64,000 nucleotides of DNA from a bacterium (GTDB lineage: Bacteria; UBA8248). Both the position numbers and the translations under genes were made by a program. The notes under the pieces are model-generated. The model did no database searches, was not told the DNA's origin, and saw only the letters and a list, made by a program, of their open reading frames with translations. Where the stretch lies: positions 544,001-608,000 of the forward strand of contig CBDCRP010000003.1 in the NCBI GenBank assembly GCA_965221165.1, read 5' to 3'. This document shows positions 7,630 through 33,420 of the stretch, in pieces. Position 1 is the first letter of the stretch; each line of letters starts with the position of its first letter.

Positions 7630-7764
7630 TACGGATTCCTTTTTTCTCTCCGCGCCGGATAAGGGAAAATATCGTCCCGCCTGAAAAAGCCCGGGCGATA
7701 TCGACCGCACAACATTATCATATCCGCGCCATCTTCGATTCGAGAGAATATTTTCCGGGAACTC

Positions 7765-8352: not shown

Positions 8353-8365
8353 AGGGCGGGGCATC

Positions 8366-8950: not shown

Positions 8951-8969
8951 GAAAAGAGACGAAAGAGCG

Positions 8970-9671: not shown

Positions 9672-9696
9672 CTCATCAGAATACGACCATATCGCT

Positions 9697-10671: not shown

Positions 10672-10700
10672 CTCATTCTCCTTTCGCGCCCAATCTACAT

Positions 10701-15210: not shown

Positions 15211-15744
15211 ATGTCTGCAATATCCATCATGACGGCGCAAGAGCTTGAATTATCGCTGAAAAGAATCGCCTCCGAGATGATGGAGGCATGCGCTGCGGAT
15301 AAGAACATCGCCTTGGTCGGGGTGCTCACCCGGGGAGAACCGCTGGCCAGACGGCTCAAGCAGCATATCGAAGAACTCGAAAACATTGCCCCCCCTCTCG
15401 GCGCGCTCGACATCGGGGTTCACCGGGACGATGCGGGACACCCCACGGAAGGACGCGGTTTCGAACCCACCCTCATTGATTTCGACATGACGGATCGCCA
15501 GGTCTTTCTGGTCGACGACGTGTTTTTCACGGGCAGGACCGTGCGCGCGGCCCTGGACGCCATGATGGAGATGGGGCGGCCCAGGAAAATCTGGCTCGCC
15601 GCCCTGATCGACCGGGGACACAGGGAGCTTCCGTTCCGGCCCGACTTCATCGGCAAGAACGTGCCCACCTCCCTTCAGGAGCACATCCAGGTCCGGATGC
15701 GGGAGGTGGATGGCGAGGACGGCGTGTGGCTCCTGAAAAAATAA
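15211..15744 (+). CDS. pyrR: Bifunctional pyr operon regulator / uracil phosphoribosyltransferase PyrR
   Basis: LDIGVHRDD, LVDDVFFTGRTVRAALDA, DRGHRELPFRPDFIGKNVPTS. Confidence 0.93.
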   Translation: MSAISIMTAQELELSLKRIASEMMEACAADKNIALVGVLTRGEPLARRLKQHIEELENIAPPLGALDIGVHRDDAGHPTEGRGFEPTLIDFDMTDRQVFLVDDVFFTGRTVRAALDAMMEMGRPRKIWLAALIDRGHRELPFRPDFIGKNVPTSLQEHIQVRMREVDGEDGVWLLKK

Positions 15745-17912: not shown

Positions 17913-18881
17913 ATGGCCCCCTCTCCCGAACTACCGGAGCGCCTTCTCGTCGCCGTGGGTGGCAACGCGACCCATCCGCCCGAAATCAGGGGCACGGCCG
18001 AAGAACAGGCCGCCATCGCCGAGGCGACGGGCCGCTCGCTCCTTCCCCTCATGAGGCTTGGCAACGAACTCATCGTCACGCACGGAAACGGCCCGGTCGT
18101 GGGAAAAATCCTGATGCGCCAGGCGATCTCGAGCGAGCAGGTGACCCCCATGACGCTCGACATCTGCGTCGCGCACAGCCAGGGGGGAATCGCCTATCTG
18201 CTCATGCAGGCGTTCGAAAACGCGCTGCGCCGGGCGGGCGACCCGCGCCACGTGGTCTGCCTCCTGACCCAGGTCGAAGTCGACCCCGGCGATCCGGCCT
18301 TCGGTGCGCCGACGAAGTTCGTGGGCTACACCTACACCGAAGATGAAGCCAGGCGATACGAACGCGAGATGGGCTGGACGATGCGAGAAGACTCCGGGCG
18401 CGGCTGGCGGCACGTGGTCGCCTCCCCGAAACCAAAGCACATCGTGGACATCTCGCTCATCCAGACCATAGCGCAAAGCGGCGCCGTGGTTATCGCAGGA
18501 GGAGGCGGGGGCATTCCCGTCGTGCGCGAGGCCGACGGCGCGCGCCGGGGGCTCGCTGCCGTCATCGACAAGGATTTGACTTCCGCGCTCATGGCGAACG
18601 TCTTGAAGATAGAGACCATGATGATCCTCACCGCCGTGCCCAGGGTGGCTATCCACTTCGGGACGCCGCAGCAGCGCGAACTGGAGCGGGTTTCGCTCTC
18701 TGAAATCAAAGAGTACCACGCCCAGGGCCACTTCCCGCCCGGCAGCATGGGCCCCAAGATAGAGGCGGCGGTTCGCTTTCTCGAAGGGGGCGGGGAGCGG
18801 GTCCATATCGCCGCTCTGGAGGACGCCGTCCCCGCCCTGCTCGGCGAGGCGGGAACCTGTATTTATAAGGATGAGGGGTGA
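17913..18881 (+). CDS. arcC: Carbamate kinase
   Basis: GGNA, THGNGPVVG, SQGGIAY, PTKFVG, RHVVASPKP, GGGGIPV, VIDKD, GSMGPKIEAA. Confidence 0.95.
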   Translation: MAPSPELPERLLVAVGGNATHPPEIRGTAEEQAAIAEATGRSLLPLMRLGNELIVTHGNGPVVGKILMRQAISSEQVTPMTLDICVAHSQGGIAYLLMQAFENALRRAGDPRHVVCLLTQVEVDPGDPAFGAPTKFVGYTYTEDEARRYEREMGWTMREDSGRGWRHVVASPKPKHIVDISLIQTIAQSGAVVIAGGGGGIPVVREADGARRGLAAVIDKDLTSALMANVLKIETMMILTAVPRVAIHFGTPQQRELERVSLSEIKEYHAQGHFPPGSMGPKIEAAVRFLEGGGERVHIAALEDAVPALLGEAGTCIYKDEG

Positions 18882-18917
18882 CCCTCAGAGAGAGTGGAAG
18901 AGAGAGGAATTGCTCTC

Positions 18918-19020
18918 CGTAGGGGCGGACCTGCGTGTCCGCCCTTTGCGAGCGCCCATGAAGCCACCGCGCCATCGGGCCGAATTGAAAATCGGGCGGA
19001 CACGCAGGTCCGCCCCTACG
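18918..19020. repeat. REPIN-like doublet: perfect 27-bp inverted repeat of a GTAG-type REP
   Basis: CGTAGGGGCGGACCTGCGTGTCCGCCC (18918-18944) and its exact reverse complement (18994-19020), 49-bp spacer. Confidence 0.9.
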
Positions 19021-19179
19021 CCACTTCGAAAACCGCAACCGCTCATCATAAATCGGTATTCACCCCCCACCGGCGCGCCTTTGGACACGCGCTGCGAAGG
19101 GGTGCTACGTTTTTTCCCATAACGATTCCGGTTTCCATCCGCGCGCAAGGGCGCGCACGAGGCGAAAGGGGGTTTGGAC

Positions 19180-20283
19180 ATGCAGGCCGATCTGTTCCGC
19201 GTGGCGATGGATTCACCAGACGACATATCCGGCGTGGTCGCTCTCGTCGAGGAGGGAAAATGCCGCCCCGAAGAAATCGTCGGCATCATGGGGAAAACCG
19301 AGGGAAACGGCTGCGTGAACGATTTTTCCCGGGGATTCAGCAATTTCGTTCTGCTCGATTATTTCTCAAAGGCGATGGGAAAAGCGCGAGAAAAGGTGGA
19401 AGAACAGATCGCCCTCATCATGTCCGGCGGAACCGAGGGGGTCATGTGTCCCCATTTTTCGGTGTTCACCAAGTCCGCGAGCGGGCCGGGAGACGGAAGC
19501 GCAAAGCGCCTCGCCGTCGCCTCGGGCCATACGGCGGACTTTTTGCCGGAAGAAATGGGCAGGATGCCCCAGGTCCACGCGACGGCGGATCTCATCCGGC
19601 AATTGATGGAAGAGGCGCAAATCGATAGTGCTGCGGATCTGCATTTCGTGCAGGTGAAGTGCCCGCTCTTGACCGGAGATCGCATGGCGGACGCCTTTAG
19701 GCGCGGAAAGACGGTCTGCACCGAGGACACGTATAAGTCGATGGGGTACTCGCGCGGCGCCTCGGCGCTGGGCGTGGCTCTGGCGGCCGGCGAGGTGGAA
19801 GAGAGCCTCTTGAGCGACGACGTGGTTTGTAAGGACTGGTCCCTGCAATCGGGAGTCGCCTCGACTTCTGCGGGAATCGAACTGATGTGCAACGAGGCGA
19901 TGGTCATCGGCAACAGCGCGGCCTGGGGCGGAGAACTCGTCGTCGGCCACGGCGTCATGCAGGACGCCATCGACCGCGACGCGGTTCGAGACGCCATCGT
20001 GAACGCCGGGATTTCATTCGACTGGGCGCTCTCGCCCGAGGAACGCGCGCGAATCGTCAACGTATTCGCCAAATGCGAGGCCTCCCCCGACGGCCTGGTG
20101 CGGGGCCGCAGGCACACGATGCTCGACGATTCGGACATCAACAACACGCGCCACGCCCGCTCGGTGGTGAACGCCGTGGTCTCCTCGGTCGTCGGCGACA
20201 CGATGATGTACGTCTCGGGTGGTGCTGAGCACCAGGGCCCTCCCGGCGGCGGGCCCGTCGCGGCGGTCGTCCGGGCGGAGTAG
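19180..20283 (+). CDS. atzD: Ring-opening cyclic amide hydrolase (Toblerone fold), cyanuric acid hydrolase type
   Basis: GKTEGNGCVNDFSRG, MSGGTEG, FVQVKCPLLT, SMGYSRGASALG, STSAG, YVSGGAEHQGPPGGGPV. Confidence 0.9.
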   Translation: MQADLFRVAMDSPDDISGVVALVEEGKCRPEEIVGIMGKTEGNGCVNDFSRGFSNFVLLDYFSKAMGKAREKVEEQIALIMSGGTEGVMCPHFSVFTKSASGPGDGSAKRLAVASGHTADFLPEEMGRMPQVHATADLIRQLMEEAQIDSAADLHFVQVKCPLLTGDRMADAFRRGKTVCTEDTYKSMGYSRGASALGVALAAGEVEESLLSDDVVCKDWSLQSGVASTSAGIELMCNEAMVIGNSAAWGGELVVGHGVMQDAIDRDAVRDAIVNAGISFDWALSPEERARIVNVFAKCEASPDGLVRGRRHTMLDDSDINNTRHARSVVNAVVSSVVGDTMMYVSGGAEHQGPPGGGPVAAVVRAE

Positions 20284-20463
20284 CGCATCTACATCACTGC
20301 GCTCGAAGTCGCCGTCCCCATCCTCCGCGGCGATACGGGCGCCTGTATTTATAAGGTCAAACACGATTGATGAATGAGTGTTTGCCGACCGAGGCGGGAG
20401 AAAAATCACTCCCCCCTTTTTTATAATCACTCTCCTCTTCTCGCTCGGGTTTGACGGTTTTGA

Positions 20464-20630
20464 CGTCATTCCGGTGTCAGACCCGACCAATGCGGGAGGG
20501 TTTGCGGAATCCATTGGTTTTGCCTTTGTTTTTTATTTCCTCATTGATTCCCGCGAATAACAGGGGGATGAAGATCCAAAGCATTGTCTTTCGGCTCGGC
20601 TCTGGATTCCGGCATGCGCCGGAATGACGG
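20464..20630. repeat. CGTC-type REP-like doublet
   Basis: CGTCATTCCGG...GGAATCCA (20464-20513, expanded loop), inverted relative to CTGGATTCCGGCATGCGCCGGAATGACGG (20602-20630). Confidence 0.7.
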
Positions 20631-20725
20631 CGGTGGTGAATTCCGACCGAGGAGAGAGGTTATGCGAATCGTTGATTTCCTCATCTGTAAGCAATCGCTC
20701 CCTCTTCGGTCGCGATTGACCTCGC

Positions 20726-21802
20726 TTATCCCGCCGATAAGTTGCGCCTGGCTTGTACGAACACCACCGTGAGCACGATGATGGCCTGAAAGACGAACAC
20801 CGCGGCGCCCGGCAGTCCGATGCTGCGCTGCAGTGAATCGGAACCCGAGACCAGCACGGCGAACACCGCGGCGGCTATCGTCACCCCCAGCGGGTTGTTG
20901 CGCCCGATGACCGCGATCAGGATGGCCATCGCGCCGTAGTTGGGCGCGCCCTCCGCCCCGCTGATCCCCAGAAGAAGGCTCTGGTGGAATCCCGAGACCT
21001 CGATGGCCCCGGCCAGACCCGAGAGCGCGCCGCAGGTCGGCATGATGATCAGGGTGATGCGCGCGACGTTGATTCCCCCAAAACGCGCGGCCCGGGGGTT
21101 GTCCCCCACCGCGCGGATCTCATACCCGACGATGGTGCGCGTCATCAAGAAATACATGCCGAGAGCCGCCGCCAGCGCGATGATGAAGCCGAAGTGCGCG
21201 CCCGATTTCGGCATGACCTGGGGCAACACGGAAGCGTCGGGGATCGGGAGCGAGATGGCTTCTCCCGCCAGGGGGTCGTTCCAGGGGCCGTTGGCGAGGT
21301 AATCCACCAGATAGAGCGCTACGAAGTTCAGCATCACCGTCACGAAAATCTCGCTCACCCGGAAGCGCACGCGCAGGATTCCGGGAATGAATCCCCAGAA
21401 CCACCCGCCCAGAATGCCGCCCAGCATCCCGAGCGGAACGAATATCGGCCAGGGCAGGTTCAAACCTTCTAAAGCAAAGGCCGTGCCCGTCATGCCGATC
21501 GCGCCCGCGTATATCTGCCCGTCCACGCCGATGTTGAAGTGGCCCCCCCGCATCCCGAAGGCGACCGCGAGCGAGGCGAGCAGAAGCGGGCAGAATTTGT
21601 TCAAGGTCTGAGCGAATCCGCCCCACGTGCCGAGCGAGGAGCGCAAAACGGTCCCGAGCGCGACGAGCACGTCCCCGCCGAAGGCGACGATGAAGATTGC
21701 GCCGCACGCCAGGGCCAGTATAGCCGCCGTCGAGTAGGTGATCGCGATTTCAATGGCCGCTTTTTTCTTCTCGCTCACACTCGCCGCGCTTAAACTCGCC
21801 AT
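20726..21802 (-). CDS. ABC transporter permease (nucleoside/BMP type, NupB-like)
   Basis: FNIGVDGQ, EIFVTVMLN, GYEIRAVGDNPRAARFGGI; multi-TM. Confidence 0.9.
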   Translation of the reverse strand: MASLSAASVSEKKKAAIEIAITYSTAAILALACGAIFIVAFGGDVLVALGTVLRSSLGTWGGFAQTLNKFCPLLLASLAVAFGMRGGHFNIGVDGQIYAGAIGMTGTAFALEGLNLPWPIFVPLGMLGGILGGWFWGFIPGILRVRFRVSEIFVTVMLNFVALYLVDYLANGPWNDPLAGEAISLPIPDASVLPQVMPKSGAHFGFIIALAAALGMYFLMTRTIVGYEIRAVGDNPRAARFGGINVARITLIIMPTCGALSGLAGAIEVSGFHQSLLLGISGAEGAPNYGAMAILIAVIGRNNPLGVTIAAAVFAVLVSGSDSLQRSIGLPGAAVFVFQAIIVLTVVFVQARRNLSAG

Positions 21803-21803
21803 T

Positions 21804-23354
21804 TTAAGAACCCGCCCCCTGTTTGTGGCCCGCCATGAGGGCGCCTATCTGGTAGATGTCGTACTCGGGGCCGTCAAAAGCGCCTGAAATCTCCCCCGCA
21901 TAGATCACGACGATGCGGTCGCTCATGAGGCGAAGCTCGTCCAGGTCTTCTGATATCAGCAACACCCCGGCTCCGCCCGCGCGAAGCTCCCGCAGTCGGC
22001 CGTGGACGAACGATGCGGCCATGACGTCGAGACCGCGCGTGGGGTTGTTGGCGATCATCACCTTTCCGCCGGTCTTGTGGGCGAGCATGACCGAGCGCGC
22101 CACGATGGTCTTCTGGATGTTTCCGCCCGAGAGATGCGCGGCGGGCACGTGCTCGTTTCGAGCCAGGATGTTGAATTCCGCGATGGCGTTTCTGCCCATC
22201 TCATGGACGGCCTCGCGCTCGAATATTCCGCGCCGCTTGAAGATGTGCGGGTGCAGGCCGAGCACGAAATTCTCCGCAAGGCTCAGGCCCGGCAGAATCC
22301 CCTCCTCGATCCTGTCCTGCGGCAGGAGGCTCATCCCCCGCGCGATGCGCCCCGACACCGAAAGGTTCGATACTTCCTCGCCGTCGATGTGGACCTCGCC
22401 CTCTTCTATTTCGATGAGCCCGGCCAGGGCTTCCGCCAGTTCCTTCTGGCCGTTTCCCGAGATGCCCGCCATGCCGACGATGAGCCCCCGGGGGACGTCG
22501 AAGGCGACGTCCTTGAGAGGAACCCCCCACTTCGCCGAGGTGCGCACCCCCTGGACGGACAAAGCGGGATGTCCCTCCCGGGCCGCCGAGGGTCCGGTCG
22601 GCCGCTCGCCCTCGGGAGGCATGCCGCGCTCGCCCATCATCATCTGGACGAGTCTTTCGCGGGTGGCCTCTTCGCGGGGGATCGTGTCGATCTTCAGCCC
22701 GCCCCGGAAGACGGTGATCCGGTCGCAGTTGTCCAGAACTTCTTGGATTTTGTGCGTGATGAAGACGACCGTCAGACCCTCCTTGGCGAAGGACTTCAAG
22801 ATGGAGAACAGGCCGTCCACCTCGTGGGGGGTTAGCATGGTCGTCGGCTCGTCCAGAATCAGGATGTCCGCGCCGTGATACAGCGCCTTCAGGATTTCGA
22901 CCTTCTGCTGAATCCCGGCGGGAAGGGTTTTCACCTGCTCATCGAGCGGGATGGAGAGGCCGTAATTCGCCGCAAGCTCCTCCACGGAACTGCGCCGGGC
23001 GTCCACGTCGAGCTTCCAGCGCGAGCCCTCTTGTCCGAGCAGAATGTTCTCGAGCGCGGTGAAATTGCCGATCAACTCCACGTGCTGGTGAACCATCCCG
23101 ACGCCGACCGCGATCGCATCCTGGGGCGAGCGGATCTCCACCTCGCGCCCTTCGATCGCAATCTGTCCATCGTCCATGCGGTAGAGGCCGCTCAGGATGT
23201 TCATGAGCGTGGTCTTGCCCGCGCCGTTCTCTCCCAGGAGGGAGTGGATCTCCCCCCTGGCGGCCTCGAAGTCCACCGCGTCGAGGGCGCGGACTTCCCC
23301 GAAGGATTTGCTGACGCCGTACATCTCGACGCGGGAATTCATTTTTTCCGTCAT
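21804..23354 (-). CDS. ABC transporter ATP-binding protein, two NBDs (sugar/nucleoside type)
   Basis: GENGAGKTT, ILDEPT, GISGNGQ, LSGGNIQK, PTRGLDV. Confidence 0.92.
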   Translation of the reverse strand: MTEKMNSRVEMYGVSKSFGEVRALDAVDFEAARGEIHSLLGENGAGKTTLMNILSGLYRMDDGQIAIEGREVEIRSPQDAIAVGVGMVHQHVELIGNFTALENILLGQEGSRWKLDVDARRSSVEELAANYGLSIPLDEQVKTLPAGIQQKVEILKALYHGADILILDEPTTMLTPHEVDGLFSILKSFAKEGLTVVFITHKIQEVLDNCDRITVFRGGLKIDTIPREEATRERLVQMMMGERGMPPEGERPTGPSAAREGHPALSVQGVRTSAKWGVPLKDVAFDVPRGLIVGMAGISGNGQKELAEALAGLIEIEEGEVHIDGEEVSNLSVSGRIARGMSLLPQDRIEEGILPGLSLAENFVLGLHPHIFKRRGIFEREAVHEMGRNAIAEFNILARNEHVPAAHLSGGNIQKTIVARSVMLAHKTGGKVMIANNPTRGLDVMAASFVHGRLRELRAGGAGVLLISEDLDELRLMSDRIVVIYAGEISGAFDGPEYDIYQIGALMAGHKQGAGS

Positions 23355-23418
23355 AACGCCTTCCGTTCGGAGCGCCCCCACCCTCGCTCGCAAGTCCGGG
23401 AGGGGGCGCTCACATCTT

Positions 23419-24420
23419 CTATTTCGCCAACATGACCTTTTTCATCACGAGCCGGGGCTTGATAGCTCCGTTGCGCACCTTTTCATACGTCTCTTTGGTT
23501 CTCTTCATGGCCTCGGCGGATACGTTCCCCAGCGAACCGAGCTCGAAGCCGTTCCCCGAGCGCATGGCGACGTATCCCCCGGGGGATCCTTTCAGGATTC
23601 CTTCCATGACCTGCCGGTAGGGAGGCCGGAAGTCGATGATCAGCGTGCCCGCGAAATGCTTGGGCGCCTTGTCCGTCTTGTCGGTGTAGAACGTGGTGAT
23701 CAGCACCTTGCGCTTCGCCTTCTTGGCGGCCTCTGCCACCCCGTACACGCCCAGGTTCACCATGTTGATGATGAAGTCCACGCCGCCTGCGATCATGGCG
23801 TCGGCGGTCTGGCGCGCCTTGACCGGATCGTTCTGGTTTCCGGTGAAGGCGTAGGAGAGCTTCGCCTTTGGGTTGGTCGCCTTGAGGGCGTCCGAGATGG
23901 TGTTGATGGAAGCCTTGAAATCCGGAAGCGGGATTCCCACGATGACGCTCACCTTGTTCGTCTTCGTGGCGAGGCCGGCAAGCACGCCGAAGGGATAGAA
24001 GGCCTCGAAATAGTGGCGGTGAATGTTCCAGACGTTTCCGGGAACCTTGAACTTGCCCGAACTCTCCATGACGAAAGTCACTTCGGGGAATTTCGGCGCC
24101 AGCTTCTGCACGAGCCGGACGTATTGTCCGCCGTGGAAACCGATGATGGTGAAGCCCGAGGAGATGTACTCGCGCGCCACCCGCTCGGCGTCCGCCGGGG
24201 AGATGCGCTCGGAGTAGGAGGTTTCGATCTTGAACCTCTTCTTGATGTCCTGGGCGACCTCATAGCCCCGGAAGTTGTAGTCCGCATCCTCGATGGGTCC
24301 GGGCAGGATGACGGCGAACTTGTGGGCCTTCGCGGCGAGCGCCGGGACGGCCAGGGTCAGGGATAGGGCCGCGAGCGCGGCGGCGGCGAAGAACAATCGG
24401 CGTGTCCATTTGGTTTTCAT
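23419..24420 (-). CDS. BMP-family ABC substrate-binding protein (purine/nucleoside-like)
   Basis: AAGGAGG then ATG at 24420; ILPGPIEDADYN, IGFHGGQY, GVLAGLATKTNKV. Confidence 0.85.
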   Translation of the reverse strand: MKTKWTRRLFFAAAALAALSLTLAVPALAAKAHKFAVILPGPIEDADYNFRGYEVAQDIKKRFKIETSYSERISPADAERVAREYISSGFTIIGFHGGQYVRLVQKLAPKFPEVTFVMESSGKFKVPGNVWNIHRHYFEAFYPFGVLAGLATKTNKVSVIVGIPLPDFKASINTISDALKATNPKAKLSYAFTGNQNDPVKARQTADAMIAGGVDFIINMVNLGVYGVAEAAKKAKRKVLITTFYTDKTDKAPKHFAGTLIIDFRPPYRQVMEGILKGSPGGYVAMRSGNGFELGSLGNVSAEAMKRTKETYEKVRNGAIKPRLVMKKVMLAK

Positions 24421-24466
24421 TTCACACTCCTCCTTGATGAGAAAGCACATTATCCCGGGCGCGGGC

Positions 24467-25408
24467 TCAATCCCGGGTTTCACGGTCGTAAGGCCTCGTA
24501 AGCGCGCGGGGGCTCTCGGCGCCCCGCGCGACCTGGACCAGAACAATCATGGCGAACACGTACGGCAGCATCAGCAAAAACTGCGGCGGAATGATTTTGG
24601 CGAACTGCGGCAGGGCGTTCACCTTGAACTGAAAGGCGTCCACGTAGGCGAAGAGCAGCGCGCCGACGAACGACCATACCGGAACCCACCGCCCGAATAT
24701 CACCAGCATCAGGGCGAGCCACCCCCTTCCGTTCACGATGTTGTCCGTGAACGAGCCCGAGATCACGAGCGGCAGGTATGCCCCCGCCACGCCCAGAAAA
24801 AGTCCGCCCACCGCGCACGCGCCGTAGCGCATGCGGGCGACGTCGATCCCCACCGTGTCCGCCGCGCGCGGGTTTTCCCCGCAGGCGCGCAGCCTCAGGC
24901 CCAGCGGCGTCTTGAAGAGGAAAAAACTCACCGCCGCTACCAGGAAATAGGACATGTAGACGAGTCCGTTCTGCGCGAAGAAAATCTCGCCGATGTAGGG
25001 GATTGCGCCCAGAAGCGGGATTTTTATCTCTTGTAATGTCGGCACCTGGGGGATGGATTGCACGACGCCCACCGCCAGCCGGTAGATGGTGGGCGATACC
25101 CCCAGTCCCAGGACGAATATTCCCAGCCCGATGACGATCTGGTTCGCGCGCAGTGTGATGGAGAAATACGCCAGAAGCAACGTCAGCACGCTCCCCGAGA
25201 GCGCCGCGACCATGCAGCCGATGACCGCGCTGCCCGAGTAGTAGGTGAGCAGAAAGCCCGTCACCGAGCCGAGCGTCACGATGCCCTCGATGCCGACGTT
25301 CAGAATCCCCGAGCGTTCGATGATTGTCTCGCCCAGGCACGCGATGATGAGCGGCGCCATCATGAGCATAGTGAGCTGGAAAAGGGATATATCGAACAAA
25401 AGGGACAA
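24467..25408 (-). CDS. ABC transporter permease (nucleoside/BMP type, NupC-like)
   Basis: ERSGILNVGIEG, GLRLRACGENPRAADTVGI, GRGWLAL, LPY; probable TTG start at 25408 after GGGGAG. Confidence 0.9.
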   Translation of the reverse strand: MSLLFDISLFQLTMLMMAPLIIACLGETIIERSGILNVGIEGIVTLGSVTGFLLTYYSGSAVIGCMVAALSGSVLTLLLAYFSITLRANQIVIGLGIFVLGLGVSPTIYRLAVGVVQSIPQVPTLQEIKIPLLGAIPYIGEIFFAQNGLVYMSYFLVAAVSFFLFKTPLGLRLRACGENPRAADTVGIDVARMRYGACAVGGLFLGVAGAYLPLVISGSFTDNIVNGRGWLALMLVIFGRWVPVWSFVGALLFAYVDAFQFKVNALPQFAKIIPPQFLLMLPYVFAMIVLVQVARGAESPRALTRPYDRETRD

Positions 25409-25770
25409 GAAGGCGTACTCCCCGCAGTGGTATGAAAATGTGAACACTCGTCTCCGCGCGCCGCTTCCCGGGAGACGGGGCATATTGTCCTTGTGGCTTG
25501 GCGGTCAGTATGCCTCATGTATTTCTCAAATTCAAAATACCGCCTTTATGTTTCCGGCGTGTAACGCGGATTTTTCCTTTCCAATTTTTCATTCCGTTCC
25601 CTCTAATCAGCCTCGGCGCGCCGTCCGCCGCGTTGCGTTCGCGATGAAGGCGGATGCGTTGCCCGCCGCGTTCGGTTCATACATAATGCGCCCATTGCAC
25701 ACGCTTCCCTATGAACCGACTGCCAAGATGGAGATCGTTTCTTTTCTTCGTCCAAAAGGAGACCTCCGAA

Positions 25771-26487
25771 ATGGAATTGATCGATCTGAGCATGGAAATA
25801 TACCGGGACATGCCGATTTACCCGGACCTGCCCGGCCCCTCTCTCACCGTCGATGAAGACTGGGACACCGTGGCCCGGCGCACGGGCTCGATCAACTACG
25901 GCGCCCCCATCGTGACGAACCACTGCGTCATCTTCATGAGCGACCACACCGGAACGCACATCGACTCTCCCTGGCACAACAACCCCGAGGGCTTCACGAC
26001 TGAGCGCATCCCGATAGAATGGTGCATGTCGGACGGCGTGGTTCTCGATTTCACCGACAAGGAGGCGGGCTACGCGATCACGGCGGCGGACCTGGAAGGC
26101 GCGCTCCGGAAGATCGACTACACGCTCAAGCCTTTGGACATCGTGCTCATCCGCACCGACGCGAGCGTGGACTGGCAGACGAACCCCGACTACACGATGA
26201 ACCAGCCCGGCATGAGCGCCGAGGCGACCCACTACCTCATCGACAACGGCATACGCGTGATGGGGATCGACGCGAGCGGCTGGGACGTTCCGATCTGGAA
26301 GATGCACGAGACGCGCAGCTACTGGGAAGCCCACCGGGTCATGCTCGAGAAGGACTACTGCCACATGGAGAACATGGTGAACTTGAACCTGATCCCCAAG
26401 TCCCACGGGTTCAAGCTCTCGGTGCTGCCCATCAAGTTCCGAGGCATGTCGGGCTCCCCCATTCGCGCGGTGGCGATCATCGAGTAG
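25771..26487 (+). CDS. Cyclase family metal-dependent hydrolase (kynurenine formamidase / isatin hydrolase-like)
   Basis: AAGGAG then ATG; HTGTHIDSPWH (HxGTHxDxPxH), MGIDA, HMENMVNL, GSPIRAVA. Confidence 0.9.
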   Translation: MELIDLSMEIYRDMPIYPDLPGPSLTVDEDWDTVARRTGSINYGAPIVTNHCVIFMSDHTGTHIDSPWHNNPEGFTTERIPIEWCMSDGVVLDFTDKEAGYAITAADLEGALRKIDYTLKPLDIVLIRTDASVDWQTNPDYTMNQPGMSAEATHYLIDNGIRVMGIDASGWDVPIWKMHETRSYWEAHRVMLEKDYCHMENMVNLNLIPKSHGFKLSVLPIKFRGMSGSPIRAVAIIE

Positions 26488-26512
26488 CCCTCGGGCAACT
26501 GGAGCGAGTGAA

Positions 26513-28069
26513 ATGGCGCTGGCCGTCCGCGTCCTGGCAGGCGCGTACCACGATTCGGTGAAGCTCATGCGCATCAGCGCCTCCGCGTGCGAAAGGCCGG
26601 GGGTCCGGAGGGCGGTGGCCCTCATGGGCACGCCGATGAATCTGGAGCAACTCGCATCGAGCGGCCTGTTGGCGGAAGAAGCGAAAGGCGCCGGCCCGAA
26701 CGACCTCGTCCTCGCCGTGGAGGCGGATGGCGCAAGCGCGGCGCAAAAAGAACTCACCATTATGGAAGCGGCGCTCACAGCCCCCCGCACGGGCGCGGGA
26801 GCGGGCGCGTTCGCGAACCTCTCGGCGCCCACTCTGGATGCCGCGCTCGACAATGACCCTCTCATCAACCTGGCGCTTTTCTCGATTCCGGGCGCAAGCG
26901 TGCGCCGCGAGGCGGAGCGCGCGCTCAAAAAAGGTCTCCACTGCCTCATCTTCAGCGACAACGTGACTGTTGAAGACGAGGTGGCGCTCAAGCGCATGGG
27001 GCGCGAGCGGGGTCTGCTCGTCATGGGTCCCGACTGCGGCACGGCGCACATAGGCGGCGTGGGCCTCGGGTTTTGCAACGTCATGCGCCCCGGCGGAATC
27101 GGGATCGCGGGCGCGGCGGGAACGGGGATTCAGGAAGCCATGGCCGCCATCGACGCAAGCGGCGGCGGAATCTCCTGCGCGCTCGGGACTGGCGGGCGCG
27201 ACGTGTCGGACGCGGTCGGTGGGCTCGCCATGATCCAGGCTATTGAAACTCTTAGCGAAGATACGGCGACGGAAGTTCTCCTCGTTCTCGGGAAACCGCC
27301 CGAGGCCGCCGCGATGGAAAAAGTGTTGGAGACGACTGCGCGAAGCGCAAAGCCCGCCGTCATTCACTTCGTCGGAGGCCGGAGCGAGGATGTCCGCAAA
27401 CATCCCGGTCTTCACGCGGCCGATTCGCTGGCCGCGGCGGGAAGGCTCGCGGCATCTCTGAGTGAAGGGCGCATCGACGCAGCAGCTCCTGAAATCGACT
27501 CTGAAACGAGAGAAAGAATCGCCGAATGGAATCGCGCGCGCGCGCAGGGGCGGAGATTCCTGCGCGGCGTCTACACGGGCGGAACGCTGTGCGCCGAGGC
27601 GCAGGCGCTCATCGGAAGAACCGTGGCGGGGATTCGCTCCAACGCGCCCCTCGATAAAGCGGGCGGCAAGATGGCCGACCCCATGAAATCACAAGGCCAT
27701 GCGGTCGTGGATATGGGGGATGACCTCTTCACGCGGGGAAAACCCCATCCCATGATCGAGCCTGCGCCGAGGAACACGAGACTCCTTCAGGAAGCCGAAG
27801 ACCCCGAGACGGCGGTGGTGCTCCTAGACTTGGTACTGGGGTTGGGCGCGCATGATAACCCGGCGGAAGAGGCGGCGGGAGCGATCGAGAGTGCGCGAGA
27901 ATCGAGTCCCGGCGTCTTGTTCATCGGCTCCGTCACGGGGACGGAGGGCGACCCGCAGGGTTTGGAGGCCCAGCGCGTCCGGCTGGCCGAGGCCGGAGCC
28001 TTGGTGGCTGATACCCACGCCGGGGCGTGTCTGGCCGCCGCCGCCGCACTCGAGGAGCTTGTCGAGTGA
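26513..28069 (+). CDS. fdrA: FdrA/YahF (AllF-like) acyl-CoA-synthetase-fold protein, putative carbamoyltransferase subunit
   Basis: YHDSVKLM, MGTPMN, FSDNV, MGPDCGTA, GTGGRD, GGTLCAEA, DMGDDLFTRGKPHPMIEP. Confidence 0.9.
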   Translation: MALAVRVLAGAYHDSVKLMRISASACERPGVRRAVALMGTPMNLEQLASSGLLAEEAKGAGPNDLVLAVEADGASAAQKELTIMEAALTAPRTGAGAGAFANLSAPTLDAALDNDPLINLALFSIPGASVRREAERALKKGLHCLIFSDNVTVEDEVALKRMGRERGLLVMGPDCGTAHIGGVGLGFCNVMRPGGIGIAGAAGTGIQEAMAAIDASGGGISCALGTGGRDVSDAVGGLAMIQAIETLSEDTATEVLLVLGKPPEAAAMEKVLETTARSAKPAVIHFVGGRSEDVRKHPGLHAADSLAAAGRLAASLSEGRIDAAAPEIDSETRERIAEWNRARAQGRRFLRGVYTGGTLCAEAQALIGRTVAGIRSNAPLDKAGGKMADPMKSQGHAVVDMGDDLFTRGKPHPMIEPAPRNTRLLQEAEDPETAVVLLDLVLGLGAHDNPAEEAAGAIESARESSPGVLFIGSVTGTEGDPQGLEAQRVRLAEAGALVADTHAGACLAAAAALEELVE

Positions 28070-29484
28070 ACCCGAAAAAACTGCTGGAGGGCGTTCGCGT
28101 TGCGAACATCGGAGTGGAGTTGTTCGCGGAAAGCCTCGTTTCGCAGAATGCGCCCGTTGTGCAGGTGGACTGGCGTCCCCCCGCCGGAGGAGACCCGGAC
28201 ATGATCGAACATCTCGACCGGCTGAGCGTTTGCGATGCGGCCAACGATGCCGCGATAGAGCGCCTTCAGGCCGCAAGGCCCGTGTGGGCGGATATAGGCG
28301 TCGCCATCGAGGAGGTACCCGGCATGGGAGAGCGAACCCTCCTGCACTCAGGGCCTCCCATCACCTGGGAGAGAATGTCCGGCCCCCTGCGCGGCGCGAT
28401 GATAGGGGCGGCCCTCTTGGAGGGCTGGGCGAACGATGCGGACGCGGCGGAAAGACTCTGCGCGAGCGGAGAAATCGCTTTTGAGCCCTGCCACCACCAT
28501 TCGGCGGTGGGGCCGATGGCGGGCGTGGTGTCGCCCTCGATGCCCGTGAGCGTCATCGAAAACCGCGCGGCCTCTGAACTCGGGGGCGGCAACAGGGCCT
28601 ATTGCACCTTGAACGAGGGCTTGGGCAAGGTGCTGCGCTACGGCGCGTATTCGCCCGACGTGCTGGCGCGCCTCCGCTGGATGGCGGACGAACTGGCCCC
28701 CGCCCTGCGCGCGGCGCTGCGAGCGACCCCCGAGGGACTCGACGTCAAGAACGTCATCGCGCGCGCCCTGCACATGGGCGATGAGGCGCACAACCGGAAC
28801 CACGCGGCGACCTCCACGGTGGCCCGCGCCCTCATGCCCTACCTCGCGGATTCTGTGAGCGATACGAAGGTGATCTCCCGCGTGGCGGAATTTTTCGCCG
28901 GAAACGATCATTTTTTTCTGAATCTGGCGATGCCAGCCGCCAAGGCGAGCCTCGACACCATGCCGGGGATCGAGGGCTGCTCTTTGGTCTACGCCATGTC
29001 GCGCAACGGAACGGATTTCGGCATCAGAGTGGGCGGCCTGGGAGACGCTTGGTTCACCGCGCCAGCGAAGCACCCGGTCGGCCTGTTCTTCCCGGGCTAT
29101 TCCCAGGAAGACGCAAATCCCGACATCGGCGATTCGGCCATCATGGAGACCTTGGGCGTCGGCGGATTCGCGATGGCCGCAGCGCCCGCCATCGTCGAGT
29201 TCGTGGGAGGCTCGACCGCCGAGGCCTTTCAGGCGACGAACGAGATGTACGGAATCACCTGGGCGAGGAGCCGCGACTATACCCTCCCCGTATTCGATTT
29301 CGCGGGCGTCCCGACCGGAATCGACGTCCGCAAGGTGATCGAGACGGGCATATACCCCAACATCAACACCGGAATCGCCCACCGCGATCCAGGCGTAGGA
29401 CAGATAGGCGCGGGCGTTCTGCGCGCGCCCGAGGAGCCGTTTCAAAAGGCCTTCGAAGCCCTCGCCGAGAAGATGGGCAGGTAG
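28066..29484 (+). CDS. DUF1116 protein (YahG/YlbE, AllG-like), putative carbamoyltransferase subunit
   Basis: GTG start overlapping the fdrA stop (GTGA) after GAGGAG; LLHSGPP, PCHH, GPMAG, LHMGDEAHNRN, RNGTDFG, DIGDSA, INTGIAH, GQIGAG. Confidence 0.9.
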   Translation: MNPKKLLEGVRVANIGVELFAESLVSQNAPVVQVDWRPPAGGDPDMIEHLDRLSVCDAANDAAIERLQAARPVWADIGVAIEEVPGMGERTLLHSGPPITWERMSGPLRGAMIGAALLEGWANDADAAERLCASGEIAFEPCHHHSAVGPMAGVVSPSMPVSVIENRAASELGGGNRAYCTLNEGLGKVLRYGAYSPDVLARLRWMADELAPALRAALRATPEGLDVKNVIARALHMGDEAHNRNHAATSTVARALMPYLADSVSDTKVISRVAEFFAGNDHFFLNLAMPAAKASLDTMPGIEGCSLVYAMSRNGTDFGIRVGGLGDAWFTAPAKHPVGLFFPGYSQEDANPDIGDSAIMETLGVGGFAMAAAPAIVEFVGGSTAEAFQATNEMYGITWARSRDYTLPVFDFAGVPTGIDVRKVIETGIYPNINTGIAHRDPGVGQIGAGVLRAPEEPFQKAFEALAEKMGR

Positions 29485-29578
29485 TAGGGACGGACCCCTT
29501 CTCCGGGTTGTTCCACAGGTCGAGACTTGTCCTTACGGTGAGAGAGCAATAGAGTTGTCATTCCGATATCATTTCCCA

Positions 29579-29733
29579 CCGTCATTCCGGCGAATGCCGG
29601 AATCCAGCGACTTTGCCTTTTGTTTTTCACCGTCATTTCCAACCAATGACGGAGAAAAGGGAATGCCGTAATATCTTCATCTTATCGGTTCTGGTCAACC
29701 TTTCGGTTGCCACCAGCATGCGCCGGAATGACG
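29579..29733. repeat. CGTC-type REP-like doublet
   Basis: CCGTCATTCCGGCGAATGCCGGAATCCAG (29579-29607; 28/29 to the reverse complement of 20602-20630) and inverted partial copy GCATGCGCCGGAATGACG (29716-29733). Confidence 0.8.
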
Positions 29734-29958: not shown

Positions 29959-29987
29959 TTGACAGGGAACGGCCCGAGCCATACGAT
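29959..29987 (+). promoter_or_regulatory. Sigma70-type promoter
   Basis: TTGACA-N17-TACGAT. Confidence 0.7.
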
Positions 29988-29993
29988 TTCTCT

Positions 29994-30195
29994 AACTTCA
30001 CAATACAGAACCGGATTCGAGAAAGCTTCCTGCACGAAACCAGGAGGCGCTTGTGATGGATTCACCCTCTCTCCTGCGAAGGCCGTCCTCTCGAAATCCG
30101 TCCGCGCGGTCCGCGGGCGGCAAGCCGTCTTCCACATCGAGTCCAGGGATAAATCGCAGCGCCCCGGCGGATTACCGTCCGGGCGCTTTTCTTTT
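29994..30195 (+). ncRNA. Candidate structured 5' leader RNA (riboswitch/attenuator-like), family not recognised
   Basis: Closing helix 30012-30022/30089-30100 encloses three hairpins and is followed by further hairpins and a terminator; lies between the promoter and the SBP gene. Confidence 0.4.
30158..30195 (+). terminator. Intrinsic terminator upstream of the SBP gene
   Basis: AGCGCCCCGGCGG-ATTA-CCGTCCGGGCGCT followed by TTTCTTTT. Confidence 0.75.
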
Positions 30196-30261
30196 CAAAG
30201 GGGGCCGCAGCGCCCGAAGCCTTCCTCCGGCGATGCGGACCCTTCATTTGGAGGAACAAGA

Positions 30262-31479
30262 ATGAGCGCACGCATGAAACGAGGATTCGCTATTTTTGTG
30301 GGATTGGCGTTCGCCTTGGGCGTCGTTCTTTCGGTCGCGCCCGCCCAGGCGGCGAAGAAGCCGGTCGTCATCGGGGTGGCCATCGCACTCTCAGGAAAAG
30401 TTTCCAAATCCGGGAAACTCACCCTTCGCGGATATGAGATGTGGCAGCGCGAAGTCAACGCGCGAGGCGGGCTGCTCGGCCGCAAGGTGGTGCTCAAGGT
30501 CTACGACGATGAGAGCAACCCCACCACCGGGGCGAAGCTCATCGAACGCCTCATCAACCGCGACAAGGCGGAAATCATCTTCGGCCCGTTCAGCAGTCCG
30601 GTCACCTACGCGACGAGCACCGTCACCGAGAAATACAAGTATCCCATGATCGCAGGCGGCTCGAGCAGTTCCAAGCCGTTCTCCCGGGGCTACAAGTATC
30701 TCTTCCAGGTGATGCGGGTGAACAACGACGCGCTTCTCGGCAACCTCTCCCTCTTGAAGGAAAAGGGCGCCAAGACCATCGCGGTCATCCACTCGGCGAG
30801 CATCTACCCGTCCTCTCTCGCCAAAGGGGTCGTGAAGCTAGGCAAGAAGCTCGGCTTCAAGGTGCTTTCGGTGGACAAGTATCCCCCGAAGACGACGGAC
30901 TTCACCTCGCTCCTCCTCAAGGCGAAGGGGATGAACCCCGACGTGCTCTGCCTGTTCGGCTACTACCCCGACGGGCTGGCCATTTCCAAGCAGGCCAAGG
31001 AGCTGGACGTCAACCCCCGCCACTTGAACGTCATGCTGGGAGCCTCTTATGAAGAGTACGGCTCGAAGAAGGGCGTGGGCCTGGATTCGAATTACGTGAG
31101 CGGCTACACGGGCTGGGAGCCGTTCATGAACACGCCGGGCAACAAGGCGTTCGTGAAGAGATATTTCGATGAGTACAAGGACGACCGCTTCATGGACTCG
31201 CACGTCACCTACGGCTACATCGTCGGCCAGGTGATGGAAAAGGCGGTGAACAAGGTCGGCTCGTTCAATCGGGATAGAATCCGCGACGCGATCGCCGCGA
31301 TGAAGTTCGACAGCCTCATGCCGGGAGAGTTCCGGGTGGACCCGAAGTCCGGCATGCAGATCGGACACGAGTGGGCGGCCTTCCAGTGGCAAAACGGCAA
31401 AAAGGTCATCGTATGGCCGAAGAACGTCGCCACGGGTGAATTCGTCTACCCGACGCCCAAGTGGAGAGCAAGGAACTAG
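30262..31479 (+). CDS. LivK-type (HAAT family) ABC substrate-binding protein
   Basis: GGAGG then ATG; signal peptide; IGVAIALSG, VNARGGLLGRKVVLKVYDDESNP, GPFSS, QWQNG. Confidence 0.9.
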   Translation: MSARMKRGFAIFVGLAFALGVVLSVAPAQAAKKPVVIGVAIALSGKVSKSGKLTLRGYEMWQREVNARGGLLGRKVVLKVYDDESNPTTGAKLIERLINRDKAEIIFGPFSSPVTYATSTVTEKYKYPMIAGGSSSSKPFSRGYKYLFQVMRVNNDALLGNLSLLKEKGAKTIAVIHSASIYPSSLAKGVVKLGKKLGFKVLSVDKYPPKTTDFTSLLLKAKGMNPDVLCLFGYYPDGLAISKQAKELDVNPRHLNVMLGASYEEYGSKKGVGLDSNYVSGYTGWEPFMNTPGNKAFVKRYFDEYKDDRFMDSHVTYGYIVGQVMEKAVNKVGSFNRDRIRDAIAAMKFDSLMPGEFRVDPKSGMQIGHEWAAFQWQNGKKVIVWPKNVATGEFVYPTPKWRARN

Positions 31480-31608
31480 CCTCTTCCCGGAACGAAAAGC
31501 GGAGAGAAGAAACGGTTTCAAGGCGGCGGTTCCGCCTTCCGCTCCGAAGCGGGGGGCGGGCGCCGCCGCCCGGAGGAGCCGCGCCGAATACAAGGGGGAA
31601 CGTGCGCC

Positions 31609-32487
31609 GTGAGCATGGAAATAATGCCGCTAATGTTCACGCAAGCCGTCATCAGCGGCATACTGATGGGCGCGGTCTACGCCCTTCTGGCCTTGGGCCT
31701 CACGATGATCTTCGGCGTCATGCACGTCATCAACATCGCCCACGGCGAGATGCTCATGCTGGGTGCCTATGTGAGCTTCTGGCTCTTTCACCATTTCGGC
31801 TTGAGTCCCCTGCTCTCCATCGTCTTCGCCGCCCCGCTCATGTTCGCCGTCGGGGCGCTTCTCGAAAAGGGCATCATCGAAAGGGTCGTCGAGGACATCG
31901 AGACGAACTCTCTCCTCGTCACCTTCGGCATCTCCATCTGCATCGTGAACATCGCGATATGGCTGTGGACCACCGATTTCAAGGCCATCCCCTACCTCTC
32001 GGGCTCCTGGTTCTACGGCTCGCTGGTGTTTCCGAAACCCCGCGTGGTGGGTGCGGCTCTCGCCCTTTTGCTGACTTCCATCGTCTACTTTTTTCTCAAA
32101 TTCTCCCGGCTCGGGAAGGCCATCCGCGCCACGGCGGGCAGTCACGATCTCGCGGCCACCTGCGGGGTTTACGTGAAGCGCATCTACTTGATCACATTCG
32201 GCCTGGCGAGTGCGATGGGCGGGGCCGCGGGCGTCCTCGCCAGCATCATGTTCGCGATCTATCCCGAGATGGGCGATTCCTTCCTGATGCGCTCGTTCAC
32301 CGTGATCGTGCTCGGGGGAATGGGTCACGTCATGGGCGCGGTGCTCGGCGGAATACTCCTCGGGCTCGCGGAGGGCATAGGCAGCCTCTATCTCAGCGGA
32401 GAAGGCGGGGGGGCCATCTCGTTCGCCATTTTATTGCTCATCCTCATTTTTCGCCCCTCCGGACTCCTGGGCCGAAGGGAGGAATGA
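31609..32487 (+). CDS. livH: Branched-chain amino acid ABC permease, LivH type
   Basis: LGLTMIFGVMHVINIAHGE, GKAIRA, IVLGGMG, RPSGLLG. Confidence 0.88.
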   Translation: MSMEIMPLMFTQAVISGILMGAVYALLALGLTMIFGVMHVINIAHGEMLMLGAYVSFWLFHHFGLSPLLSIVFAAPLMFAVGALLEKGIIERVVEDIETNSLLVTFGISICIVNIAIWLWTTDFKAIPYLSGSWFYGSLVFPKPRVVGAALALLLTSIVYFFLKFSRLGKAIRATAGSHDLAATCGVYVKRIYLITFGLASAMGGAAGVLASIMFAIYPEMGDSFLMRSFTVIVLGGMGHVMGAVLGGILLGLAEGIGSLYLSGEGGGAISFAILLLILIFRPSGLLGRREE

Positions 32488-32493
32488 GCCGAA

Positions 32494-33420
32494 ATGAAGA
32501 AATACGCAATGATAGCCCTCGCCCTGATCGCGCTTTGCCTCTATCCCTACTTCGCGGGGCCGTATTTCATATCCATGGCGCTCCTGATCTTCATGTACAT
32601 CAGCCTGGCGGGAAGCTGGAACATCATTTCCGGTTTCGCAGGGTATATTTCACTCGGACACGCGGTTTTCTTCGGGTTCGGCGCGTATCTGGCGTCCTTG
32701 CAGATAACGAACTTCGGCACGCACTGGCTGCCGGCTTCCCTGCTCGCAGGCTTAGGCGCGTCCTTGCTGGCGGTGCCCGTGGGGGGGCTTTGCCTGCGCC
32801 TTCGGGGGCCGTTTTTCGCCATCTTCATGCTCGGACTGAACGAGTTGATGGCCATCATCGCCTCGGTCTACGACAACATCACGGGCGGCGCAGAGGGACT
32901 TTCCCTGCCGATTCTGCGCCAGATCCTCCCTCTCTACTTTGCCATGGGAATCGTGGCCCTATCGGTGTTTCTCGTGATGCTGTGGCTCGAATCGAGCCGG
33001 TTCGGCCTCCGCCTGCTCGCGATTCGAGAAGACGAGACGGCGGCGGACACGCTGGGGACGAACACGACTCTCTACAAGCTCATCGCCTTCATCATGAGCG
33101 CGTTTTTCCCGGGCGTCGTGGGAGGGATTTACGCCCGCTATATCACCTATATCGATCCCGAGACCGTGTTCAACATCCTGTTCAGCGTCCAGATGGTGCT
33201 CATGTGCATCCTGGGCGGGCGGGGCACGGCGTGGGGCCCCGTCATCGGGGCGACGACCCTGTACCTCATCCTGGAATTCACCTGGGCCAATTTCCCCCAC
33301 TTCCACAAGCTGGCTTCGGGCGCCTTGATCGTCTTGATCATTCTCTACGCTCCCCGGGGGATCATGGGCTTCATCTACGGGAGGGGGATCGCCCGCCTGC
33401 GGCCCTCTTTCAGGAACTGA
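32494..33420 (+). CDS. livM: Branched-chain amino acid ABC permease, LivM type
   Basis: GFAGYISLGHAVFFGFGAY, LRLRGPFFAI, AIREDE, LGGRGTAWGP. Confidence 0.88.
   Translation: MKKYAMIALALIALCLYPYFAGPYFISMALLIFMYISLAGSWNIISGFAGYISLGHAVFFGFGAYLASLQITNFGTHWLPASLLAGLGASLLAVPVGGLCLRLRGPFFAIFMLGLNELMAIIASVYDNITGGAEGLSLPILRQILPLYFAMGIVALSVFLVMLWLESSRFGLRLLAIREDETAADTLGTNTTLYKLIAFIMSAFFPGVVGGIYARYITYIDPETVFNILFSVQMVLMCILGGRGTAWGPVIGATTLYLILEFTWANFPHFHKLASGALIVLIILYAPRGIMGFIYGRGIARLRPSFRN

Follow-up and report, generated by a model that had tools for sequence, protein, structure and literature searches.

A cyanuric acid hydrolase gene cluster with AllF/AllG-type and carbamate kinase genes suggests a phosphorolytic route for cyanuric acid catabolism

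A 64,000 nucleotide stretch of DNA (hereafter the window) from a bacterium of the GTDB lineage UBA8248, corresponding to positions 544001-608000 of contig C3 (CBDCRP010000003.1) in a 3.69 Mb genome that is 96% complete (GCA_965221165.1), contains a cluster in which a predicted cyanuric acid hydrolase (CAH) of the AtzD/TrzD family is found together with a carbamate kinase, an ATP-binding cassette (ABC) importer, a cyclase-family protein and two subunits of the AllF/AllG type. The genes listed in Table 1 were called from Pfam and NCBIfam profile scans of the open reading frames (ORFs) of the window, 45 of which were compared with Pfam. A preliminary description of this DNA, made from the letters alone, had named arcC, an AtzD-type hydrolase, a four-gene BMP importer and a divergent cyclase-fdrA-DUF1116 operon, all of which have been recovered in place by these profiles. 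Its remark that BiuH, AtzE and AtzF are missing from the window has also been borne out, with Isochorismatase or Amidase matches in none of the 45 ORFs and with tblastn matches to BiuH-like and AtzF proteins located only outside the window. No Rfam family reached its gathering score when the whole window was scanned.

Table 1. Genes and repeats of the cluster and its downstream flank, in window coordinates.
Feature	Position	Strand	Profile match or remark
Carbamate kinase (arcC/allK-like)	17913-18881	+	AA_kinase 77.6 bits; NF009007 315.4 (cut-off 266)
Cyanuric acid hydrolase, AtzD/TrzD family, Toblerone fold	19174-20283	+	PF09663 492 bits; NF052395 521.5 (cut-off 360)
REP-like palindrome, left arm	20602-20633	.	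inverted pair, 32 nt, 94% complementary
ABC permease 2 of BMP-type importer	20726-21802	-	PF02653 128.2 bits
ABC ATPase, duplicated ATP-binding domains	21804-23393	-	PF00005 149.1 bits, 2 stretches
BMP/PnrA-family substrate-binding protein	23419-24546	-	PF02608 104.7 bits
ABC permease 1	24467-25483	-	PF02653 103.9 bits
Cyclase-family (kynurenine-formamidase-like) metal amidohydrolase, predicted	25711-26487	+	PF04199 131 bits
FdrA/AllF-type subunit, succinyl-CoA-synthetase-alpha-like	26513-28069	+	NF004760 444.2 (cut-off 433)
AllG/DUF1116 subunit, long form, 485 amino acids	28027-29484	+	PF06545 314 bits
REP-like palindrome, right arm	29576-29607	.	partner of 20602-20633
Liv/Urt-like binding protein	29959-31479	+	Peripla_BP_6 221 bits; UrtA and LivJ models far under cut-off
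Two permeases downstream of the Liv/Urt-like binding protein	31609-32487, 32494-33420	+	

The closest structures to the window hydrolase are those of CAHs (5t13, E 4.9e-146; 6bum, E 1.5e-135), with barbiturase considerably more distant (5hwe, E 9.7e-79). Three sets of residues (K41/S84/R53, K162/S232/R194 and K300/S348/R326) are invariant in 81 sequences, bar one gap at S348, and such a threefold arrangement of Ser-Lys dyads with an Arg is presumably the CAH active-site pattern. By analogy with its characterised relatives, the protein is placed in the CAH family and would be expected to have the corresponding activity. Parabanate, offered earlier as an alternative ring substrate, finds no support, as all 81 sequences keep the CAH-type Ser/Lys/Arg set and no AllD-type source of oxalurate has been detected above cut-off. 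The importer genes run in the order permease, binding protein, double ATPase and permease, and the best solved relative of the BMP protein is 6pi5, an 'Atrazine periplasmic binding protein' (E 4.2e-20), a resemblance which suggests that the ligand is probably a triazine or a nucleobase-like substrate. In the cyclase, the alignment shows HTGTHIDSPWH, corresponding to HxGTHxDxPxH, which we take to be the metal-binding motif of the kynurenine formamidase/cyclase family; the arylformamidase equivalog TIGR03035 gave 60.1 bits against a cut-off of 223. The cyclase gene occupies the slot directly upstream of fdrA, where other lineages have AllH, and it has the same position at four further loci (L009, L010, L013 and L015). 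A remote homology between the cyclase and AllH was considered and rejected (hhalign probability 0.4%), and the occurrence of a cyclase beside both AtzD paralogues of the genome was discounted, given that cyclase paralogues number at least 14 in the genome.

The remaining enzymes of the cluster resemble a known E. coli system. FdrA is 39% identical to E. coli FdrA, AllG is 51.6% identical to YlbE, and the carbamate kinase is 40% identical to YbcF/AllK, scoring just under the cut-off of the equivalog TIGR00746 (334.7, cut-off 358.25). Carbamate kinase makes ATP from carbamoyl phosphate, and the window copy is the only one in the genome, where tblastn returned the self match alone. According to the available parts of two reports, the E. 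coli oxamic transcarbamylase AllF-AllG-AllH operates with the catabolic carbamate kinase AllK (PMC11326118, PMC9843812) and interconverts oxalurate plus phosphate with oxamate plus carbamoyl phosphate (PMC11326118). The likeness to the window lies in the presence of FdrA-type and DUF1116-type subunits and a carbamate kinase in one neighbourhood, with phosphorolysis of an N-carbamoyl amide followed by ATP formation as the presumed chemistry. The window differs in being without AllH, with the cyclase in its slot, in containing none of the allantoin genes allECD, in carrying a CAH and importers, and in the split point between the two subunits, which measure 518 and 485 amino acids, as in YahF/YahG. 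All CAH-linked pairs share this YahF/YahG-like split (approximately 505-529 and 468-487 amino acids), compared to 555 and 419 amino acids for E. coli AllF and AllG. The CoA_binding and Ligase_CoA domains of FdrA, along with the NCBIfam name 'acyl-CoA synthetase FdrA', could suggest that FdrA and DUF1116 form an acyl-CoA-synthetase-like enzyme with no carbamoyl transfer, the carbamate kinase serving another pathway. This is very improbable, considering that it is the purified E. coli AllFGH that performs the interconversion described above (PMC11326118, in the part available), that arcC adjoins AllG, AllH or AtzD across the phylum and that the genome has no carbamate kinase other than that of the window.

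A survey of AtzD relatives has revealed that this gene association recurs across bacteria. One genome per species was used, with an alignment of the genome's two AtzD paralogues as the query, the best 80 of 572 relatives were kept, and their flank genes were scored by tblastn with the window proteins. In the preliminary description, a lack of co-conservation of atzD with fdrA, DUF1116 and arcC in other genomes had been named as a finding that would speak against its proposal; the survey has shown the reverse, with fdrA and/or allG in the flanks of 31 of the 80 loci (both in 28) and arcC in 25, fdrA or allG also being present at 22 of these. Where each flank measured 8 kb or more (38 loci), fdrA or allG was present at 20 and all three genes at 14. 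The linked loci bear nine phylum labels and are found in Bacillota (16 of 21), Mycoplasmatota (3 of 4), Thermodesulfobacteriota (2 of 2), Chloroflexota (1 of 2), Rokuibacteriota, Vulcanimicrobiota and Actinomycetota (1 of 1 each), Pseudomonadota (2 of 37) and unlabelled metagenome-assembled genomes (MAGs) close to the window (4 of 7), with none at the four loci labelled 'Nitrospinota', which are mostly on short contigs. At least one apparent miss, at L011, was an artefact of flank length, with two transposases lying between atzD and the ABC genes. For five full-flank loci without fdrA or allG, AllG was detected elsewhere in two of the genomes (Halolactibacillus and Anaerolineaceae) and was absent from three, including that of Paenibacillus, whose locus carries BiuH-like and AtzF-like genes.

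A tree of AtzD (82 rows), with the paralogue from the same genome as its root, has linked loci in every major clade but one, the exception being a 35-row alpha- and betaproteobacterial clade with no linked locus and with BiuH-like or AtzF-like genes in some flanks. The linkage label changes 12 times on this tree (at least 8 of them forced), compared to 25.6 times when shuffled, and none of 500 shuffles was as low. The linkage between CAH and fdrA/allG is not due to chance. A tree of AllG (35 rows) further showed that the CAH-linked AllG proteins of Firmicutes are sister to E. coli YahG (99% SH-aLRT), while a second CAH-linked clade comprises Rokubacteria, Huaxiibacter, Desulfovibrionaceae, Casimicrobiaceae and Baltobacteraceae. 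CAH is thus linked to at least two or three AllG lineages, which argues for a functional tie rather than one inherited island.

Ten of the linked loci have been annotated by Pfam (98 ORFs), and a layout that recurs among them has a membrane protein of approximately 411-444 amino acids followed by AtzD, a permease of the xanthine/uracil family, AllH, FdrA, AllG and ArcC. AllH was found in seven of the ten annotated loci, and none of them contains allantoin-pathway families. The soluble enzymes of the ten loci are AtzD, AllH, FdrA, AllG and ArcC, accompanied by transporters. In such minimal clusters, nothing else is encoded that could act on the product of CAH, from which it is inferred that the AllF/AllG-type enzyme takes this product. 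Some loci contain extra genes: a cytosine-deaminase-like amidohydrolase occurs at five AtzD loci (L031, L032, L033, L045 and L060), three of them among the 31 linked, and allophanate hydrolase or urea carboxylase genes occur at L024 and L036. A stand-alone protein consisting only of an AH_C domain follows atzD directly in an Anaerolineaceae MAG (L020:11016-11519) and in a Baltobacteraceae MAG (L036:11088-12047), and in the latter it is succeeded by a SnoaL-like protein and then by urea carboxylase. The membrane protein of the recurrent layout, with approximately 9-10 hydrophobic segments and no Pfam family (e.g., L023:4830-6065), is present at 27 of the 80 loci, often beside atzD, and has no counterpart in the window's genome. 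It probably represents a new family of transporters that import the ring substrate.

The transporters also bear on the identity of the ring. Nucleobase-type transporters are common in the 31 linked loci (Xan_ur_permease in 17, BMP in 6), PucR-type purine regulators are found at L025 and L031, and pyrimidine genes lie near several clusters, with pyrR upstream in the window (15211-15744) and also at L011 and L015, genes resembling pyrK, pyrD and pyrE behind arcC in Moorella mulderi (L023) and upp in a Mariniplasma MAG (L028). These pyrimidine neighbours may be a coincidence, or carbamoyl phosphate may also feed pyrimidine synthesis. With such neighbours, the hydrolase could instead act on another six-membered ring, such as barbiturate or a pyrimidine or triazine analogue, with AllF/AllG cleaving the matching ureido acid (e.g., ureidomalonate to malonamate and carbamoyl phosphate) and the cyclase hydrolysing the remaining amide. 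This possibility is decidedly unlikely, as the window protein exceeds the cut-off of the CAH equivalog and resembles solved CAHs much more than it does barbiturase, and as the best solved relative of the BMP protein binds a triazine. In addition, the AtzD of Moorella mulderi, which is encoded in an AllH-FdrA-AllG-AtzD-...-ArcC cluster, matches the crystallised CAH of M. thermoacetica (6bum) with 740 bits, so that a near-identical relative of this cluster-borne orthologue is a characterised CAH. The Protein Data Bank (PDB) codes of the M. thermoacetica enzyme, which belongs to the same family as the window hydrolase, are confirmed in PMC6557486; that work treats the enzyme alone, and the terms 'operon', 'gene cluster', 'physiological' and 'anaerob' are missing from its text, whereas here the M. 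mulderi orthologue is seen within a cluster.

The association also holds within the window's own phylum, for which 51 species genomes were surveyed (relatives labelled Nitrospinota). AtzD was detected in 39 of these, AllG in 42 and AllH in 40. Type-1, or window-type, AtzD (at least 465 bits) is present in 26 genomes; AllG lies no more than 15 kb from it on one contig in 13 of them and on another contig of a fragmented assembly in 11, where the distance is unresolvable. At the genus level, arcC was found in 14 of 14 genomes with type-1 AtzD, compared to two of nine without it. Of the two, one has a split atzD beside arcC and the other has allG near arcC. In the 14 genomes, arcC is adjacent to atzD in 11 and approximately 15 kb away in two. 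In sister genera, arcC adjoins AllH or AllG.

The gene content outside the clusters is informative on hydrolytic alternatives. Five cluster genomes (Moorella mulderi, a Hungatella MAG, Huaxiibacter chinensis, Enterocloster lavalensis and Amphibacillus sp. Q70) were compared with the relevant profiles, and BiuH, allophanate hydrolase and AllD were above cut-off in none of them; two had no match at all to the AllD family (Ldh_2), and urease alpha was found in one. The source genome contains no urease alpha and no AH_C domain anywhere, its best AllD match scored 219.7 against a cut-off of 496.2, and its best isochorismatase is RutB-like, with 116.6 against the BiuH cut-off of 370 (NF050097). A BiuH-like isochorismatase is present at six of the 31 linked loci.

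These data can be weighed against a simpler account, in which two independent nitrogen modules lie side by side, with CAH leading to biuret that is lost or hydrolysed and with AllF/AllG and the carbamate kinase acting on imported oxalurate. A precedent for it comes from comammox Nitrospira and ammonia-oxidising archaea, in which, according to the available sections of PMC12625717, AllFGH-K and a BMP-type ABC system (bmpA-nupABC) are encoded beside enzymes of the triuret, biuret and carboxybiuret family, a likeness to the window; those contigs have no CAH, none being found in the nitrifier MAGs of that paper, and the allFGHK genes beside biuH/trtA have been read there as a separate oxalurate pathway. 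This account is also consistent with the window AllG being nearest to E. coli YlbE in the AllG tree, with an allophanate-hydrolase-like amidase elsewhere in the genome and with the second transporter at 29959-33420, which could import another ureide. On the other side, AllD is above cut-off neither in the source genome nor in any of the five cluster genomes, two of which have no Ldh_2 match, and allantoin-pathway families are missing from all ten annotated loci. Furthermore, four of the five cluster genomes are without a known biuret, allophanate or urea enzyme, so that CAH would be a dead end if the modules were independent, and the linkage recurs in several AllG lineages. Two unrelated modules are on this basis considered unlikely, although deserving of attention.

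The preferred interpretation is that CAH opens the ring, phosphate is used by the AllF/AllG-type enzyme to cleave carboxybiuret, biuret or allophanate, and the carbamate kinase makes ATP, an account which is regarded as rather probable. The locus is best explained as an uptake and catabolism unit for cyanuric acid or a closely related s-triazine. Of the phosphorolytic reading contained in the preliminary description, the tie between CAH, AllF/AllG and carbamate kinase has held, and their functional coupling is strongly supported by context; the phosphorolysis itself, the choice of acyl-urea and the gain of ATP are plausible inferences.

Canonical mineralisation of cyanuric acid proceeds from AtzD/TrzD to BiuH and AtzF, or through AtzEG, AtzH and AtzF, and the product of CAH is 1-carboxybiuret. 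The candidate route shares with it the family of the ring-opening enzyme and carboxybiuret as the first intermediate, but the window genome has no BiuH or full-length AtzF above cut-off and no urease, and the downstream steps would be phosphorolytic. In the proposed sequence, the ring would be imported by the BMP-type ABC system and opened to 1-carboxybiuret by the AtzD-type hydrolase, whose family is established and whose activity is presumed from characterised relatives. The AllF/AllG-type carbamoyltransferase and phosphate would then attack the terminal carbamoyl group of an acyl-urea, most likely carboxybiuret, to yield carbamoyl phosphate and allophanate, with biuret or allophanate as alternative substrates. 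Carbamate kinase, placed in its family by NF009007 and presumed as to direction, would convert carbamoyl phosphate and ADP to ATP, NH3 and CO2. The leftover allophanate might be cleaved in the same manner again, or be hydrolysed by the cyclase or by an amidase-only homologue encoded elsewhere. The net result would be nitrogen release and 1-2 ATP per ring with no biuret hydrolase or urease; with allophanate as a second substrate, all three nitrogens would be released and two ATP gained. Carboxybiuret, biuret and allophanate share the H2N-CO-NH-CO- head of oxalurate. Carboxybiuret is the first choice because clusters without BiuH need a direct consumer for it, and because, in the available text of PMC12625717, the carboxybiuret decarboxylase trtB is missing from comammox contigs that encode trtA and biuH, and allFGHK is present there instead; the same source also gives 1-carboxybiuret as the CAH product. 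Biuret as the substrate would leave urea, which four of the five tested genomes could not use.

Several observations weigh against this interpretation. Carboxybiuret decarboxylates spontaneously, and an enzyme using it would compete with its decay; no AllF/AllG-type enzyme is known to have been assayed with any of the three acyl-ureas. In E. coli, AllH is needed for the AllFGH reaction, according to the available portion of PMC11326118. Of the three subunits, FdrA and AllG are present in the window; AllH (DUF2877, PF11392) has no match there and is represented by one copy at C3:749224, approximately 141 kb past the window end. AllH is also absent from the L024 cluster, and in the window's genus its single copy lies far from type-1 AllG; it is beside an AllG, of type 2, only in G039, which belongs to a sister genus. 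AllG identity is 45-66% over all contexts, the window clade groups with E. coli YlbE and with the genome's second, non-CAH AllG (95% SH-aLRT), and a CAH-specific clade looked for in the AllG tree was not found, so that none marks a separate specificity. With regard to linkage, L042 has full flanks without fdrA or allG, one of the 26 genomes with type-1 AtzD has AllG far away (G004) and another has none (G001), and in one of the 14 genus members arcC lies 705 kb from atzD (G021). The 80 loci are those nearest to the window AtzD, many on short contigs, and kinship among genomes means that the counts of this survey, as well as those for the phylum and genus, are not independent. Finally, biuH or atzF elsewhere in the genome had been named beforehand as a possible explanation of the flux. 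While BiuH is below cut-off, this has proved partly true for the latter, since contig C2 encodes an allophanate hydrolase homologue of 459 amino acids with the amidase domain only (L096:8407-9786; TIGR02713 596.4, cut-off 511). Allophanate may have a hydrolytic fate in this genome through this homologue or through the cyclase, which is likely an amidohydrolase. In the stretch 6064-9786 (-) of L096 (C2:441000-459000), a second, AtzE/GatA-like amidase lies near the homologue, with one hydroxyacid dehydrogenase between the two; the stretch also contains two hydroxyacid dehydrogenases in all, a RidA fusion protein, an acyl-CoA ligase and an aminotransferase.

Cyanuric acid is the shared end point in the breakdown of s-triazine herbicides, melamine and pool-chlorine stabilisers. 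To our knowledge, the routes described for its mineralisation rely on hydrolysis alone and were elucidated in aerobic members of Proteobacteria. Anaerobic degradation has reportedly been known since the 1980s, Jessee et al. being said to have described it in 1983, and we know of no downstream genes that have been assigned to it. Cyanuric acid is also reported as a natural secretion product in the accessible part of PMC12342508. CAH is widespread in anaerobes too and is common in the window's phylum, as seen in the phylum counts given above, and a phosphorolytic route, if real, would explain such orphan CAHs, give the AllFGH enzyme class a second physiological substrate and constitute a new pathway of substrate-level phosphorylation. 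No proposal linking CAH to AllFGH or carbamate kinase was found in the open full-text literature, subscription journals being outside the search, and the closest report was PMC12625717, as far as its available sections go; this points to the phosphorolytic cyanurate route being undescribed.

Another E. coli system resembles the CAH clusters. The K-12 genes yahE-yahF-yahG-yahI-yahJ encode DUF2877, FdrA-like, DUF1116, carbamate-kinase-like and cytosine-deaminase-like amidohydrolase proteins, with the same split point as in the window; AtzD is missing there, and YahJ shares only 24% identity with the amidohydrolase of some CAH clusters. The yah cluster may serve as a ureide phosphorylase system for a different ring. 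The phosphorolytic route, if confirmed, would suggest a role both for it and for the biuH-allFGHK clusters of nitrifiers. A broader version of the proposal can be put forward tentatively, and is more doubtful than probable: two carbamoyl units would be removed in turn (carboxybiuret to allophanate to carbamate), making cyanuric acid a source of both energy and nitrogen with two ATP per ring; the phosphorolytic route, not the textbook one of biuret hydrolase and allophanate hydrolase, would be the usual and possibly the older context of CAH outside Proteobacteria; and AllFGH/YahEFG would form a general acyl-urea phosphorylase family, each member paired with a different ring-opening hydrolase.

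Further copies of these families occur in the genome. A second AtzD-family gene (C2:301000-320999, at 9812-10918, -; NF052395 399.5, cut-off 360) has as neighbours a TRZ/ATZ-family amidohydrolase of 536 amino acids, a cupin, RidA, an amine oxidase, another cyclase and a major facilitator superfamily (MFS) transporter, and this locus may serve amino-triazine deamination and ring-opening. The cupin-AtzD-RidA-MFS layout is seen again at L017 and L019. A second AllG, in a short form of 416 amino acids, has a cytosine-deaminase-like amidohydrolase as its neighbour and lacks an adjacent FdrA (C2:1146000-1165999, 9131-11641, -), and the AllG that AllH adjoins in the related genome G039 is of this second, short-form type. 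The genome also contains, at other scattered places, two FdrA paralogues and one AllH that each stand alone.

The Liv/Urt-like binding protein and its two permeases sit between allG and arcC in two close relatives, and from this gene order the conserved block probably extends to 33420. The core of the REP-like palindrome, ATTCCGGC-N2-6-GCCGGAAT, has 52 copies in the genome. The inverted pair marks both exact ends of the 9-kb block containing the ABC genes and cyclase-fdrA-allG, and a further copy lies at 29713-29733. In contigs from public runs, depth is huge at the REP-like bins, and joints jump from approximately 20.5-20.6 kb to approximately 29.6-29.8 kb. Two RNA libraries of a single study include contigs, derived from relatives that are 90-95% alike, which overlap atzD, the ABC genes, the cyclase and its junction with fdrA, fdrA itself and allG, each in part; they do not demonstrate transcription and were left out of the evidence. 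Promoter-like sites between 15000 and 31000 (5, with 2.2 expected) and terminator-like sites (15, with 14.4 expected) were uninformative. Elsewhere in the window, a CobT-like VWA protein is found with YqeC and XdhC at 369-4136, a set of the molybdenum-hydroxylase maturation type, and the stretches 50523-54802 and 59697-63589 contain citrate-synthase, aconitase and PrpF genes, a combination characteristic of the methylcitrate route, as well as two tandem acetyl-CoA-synthetase-like genes.

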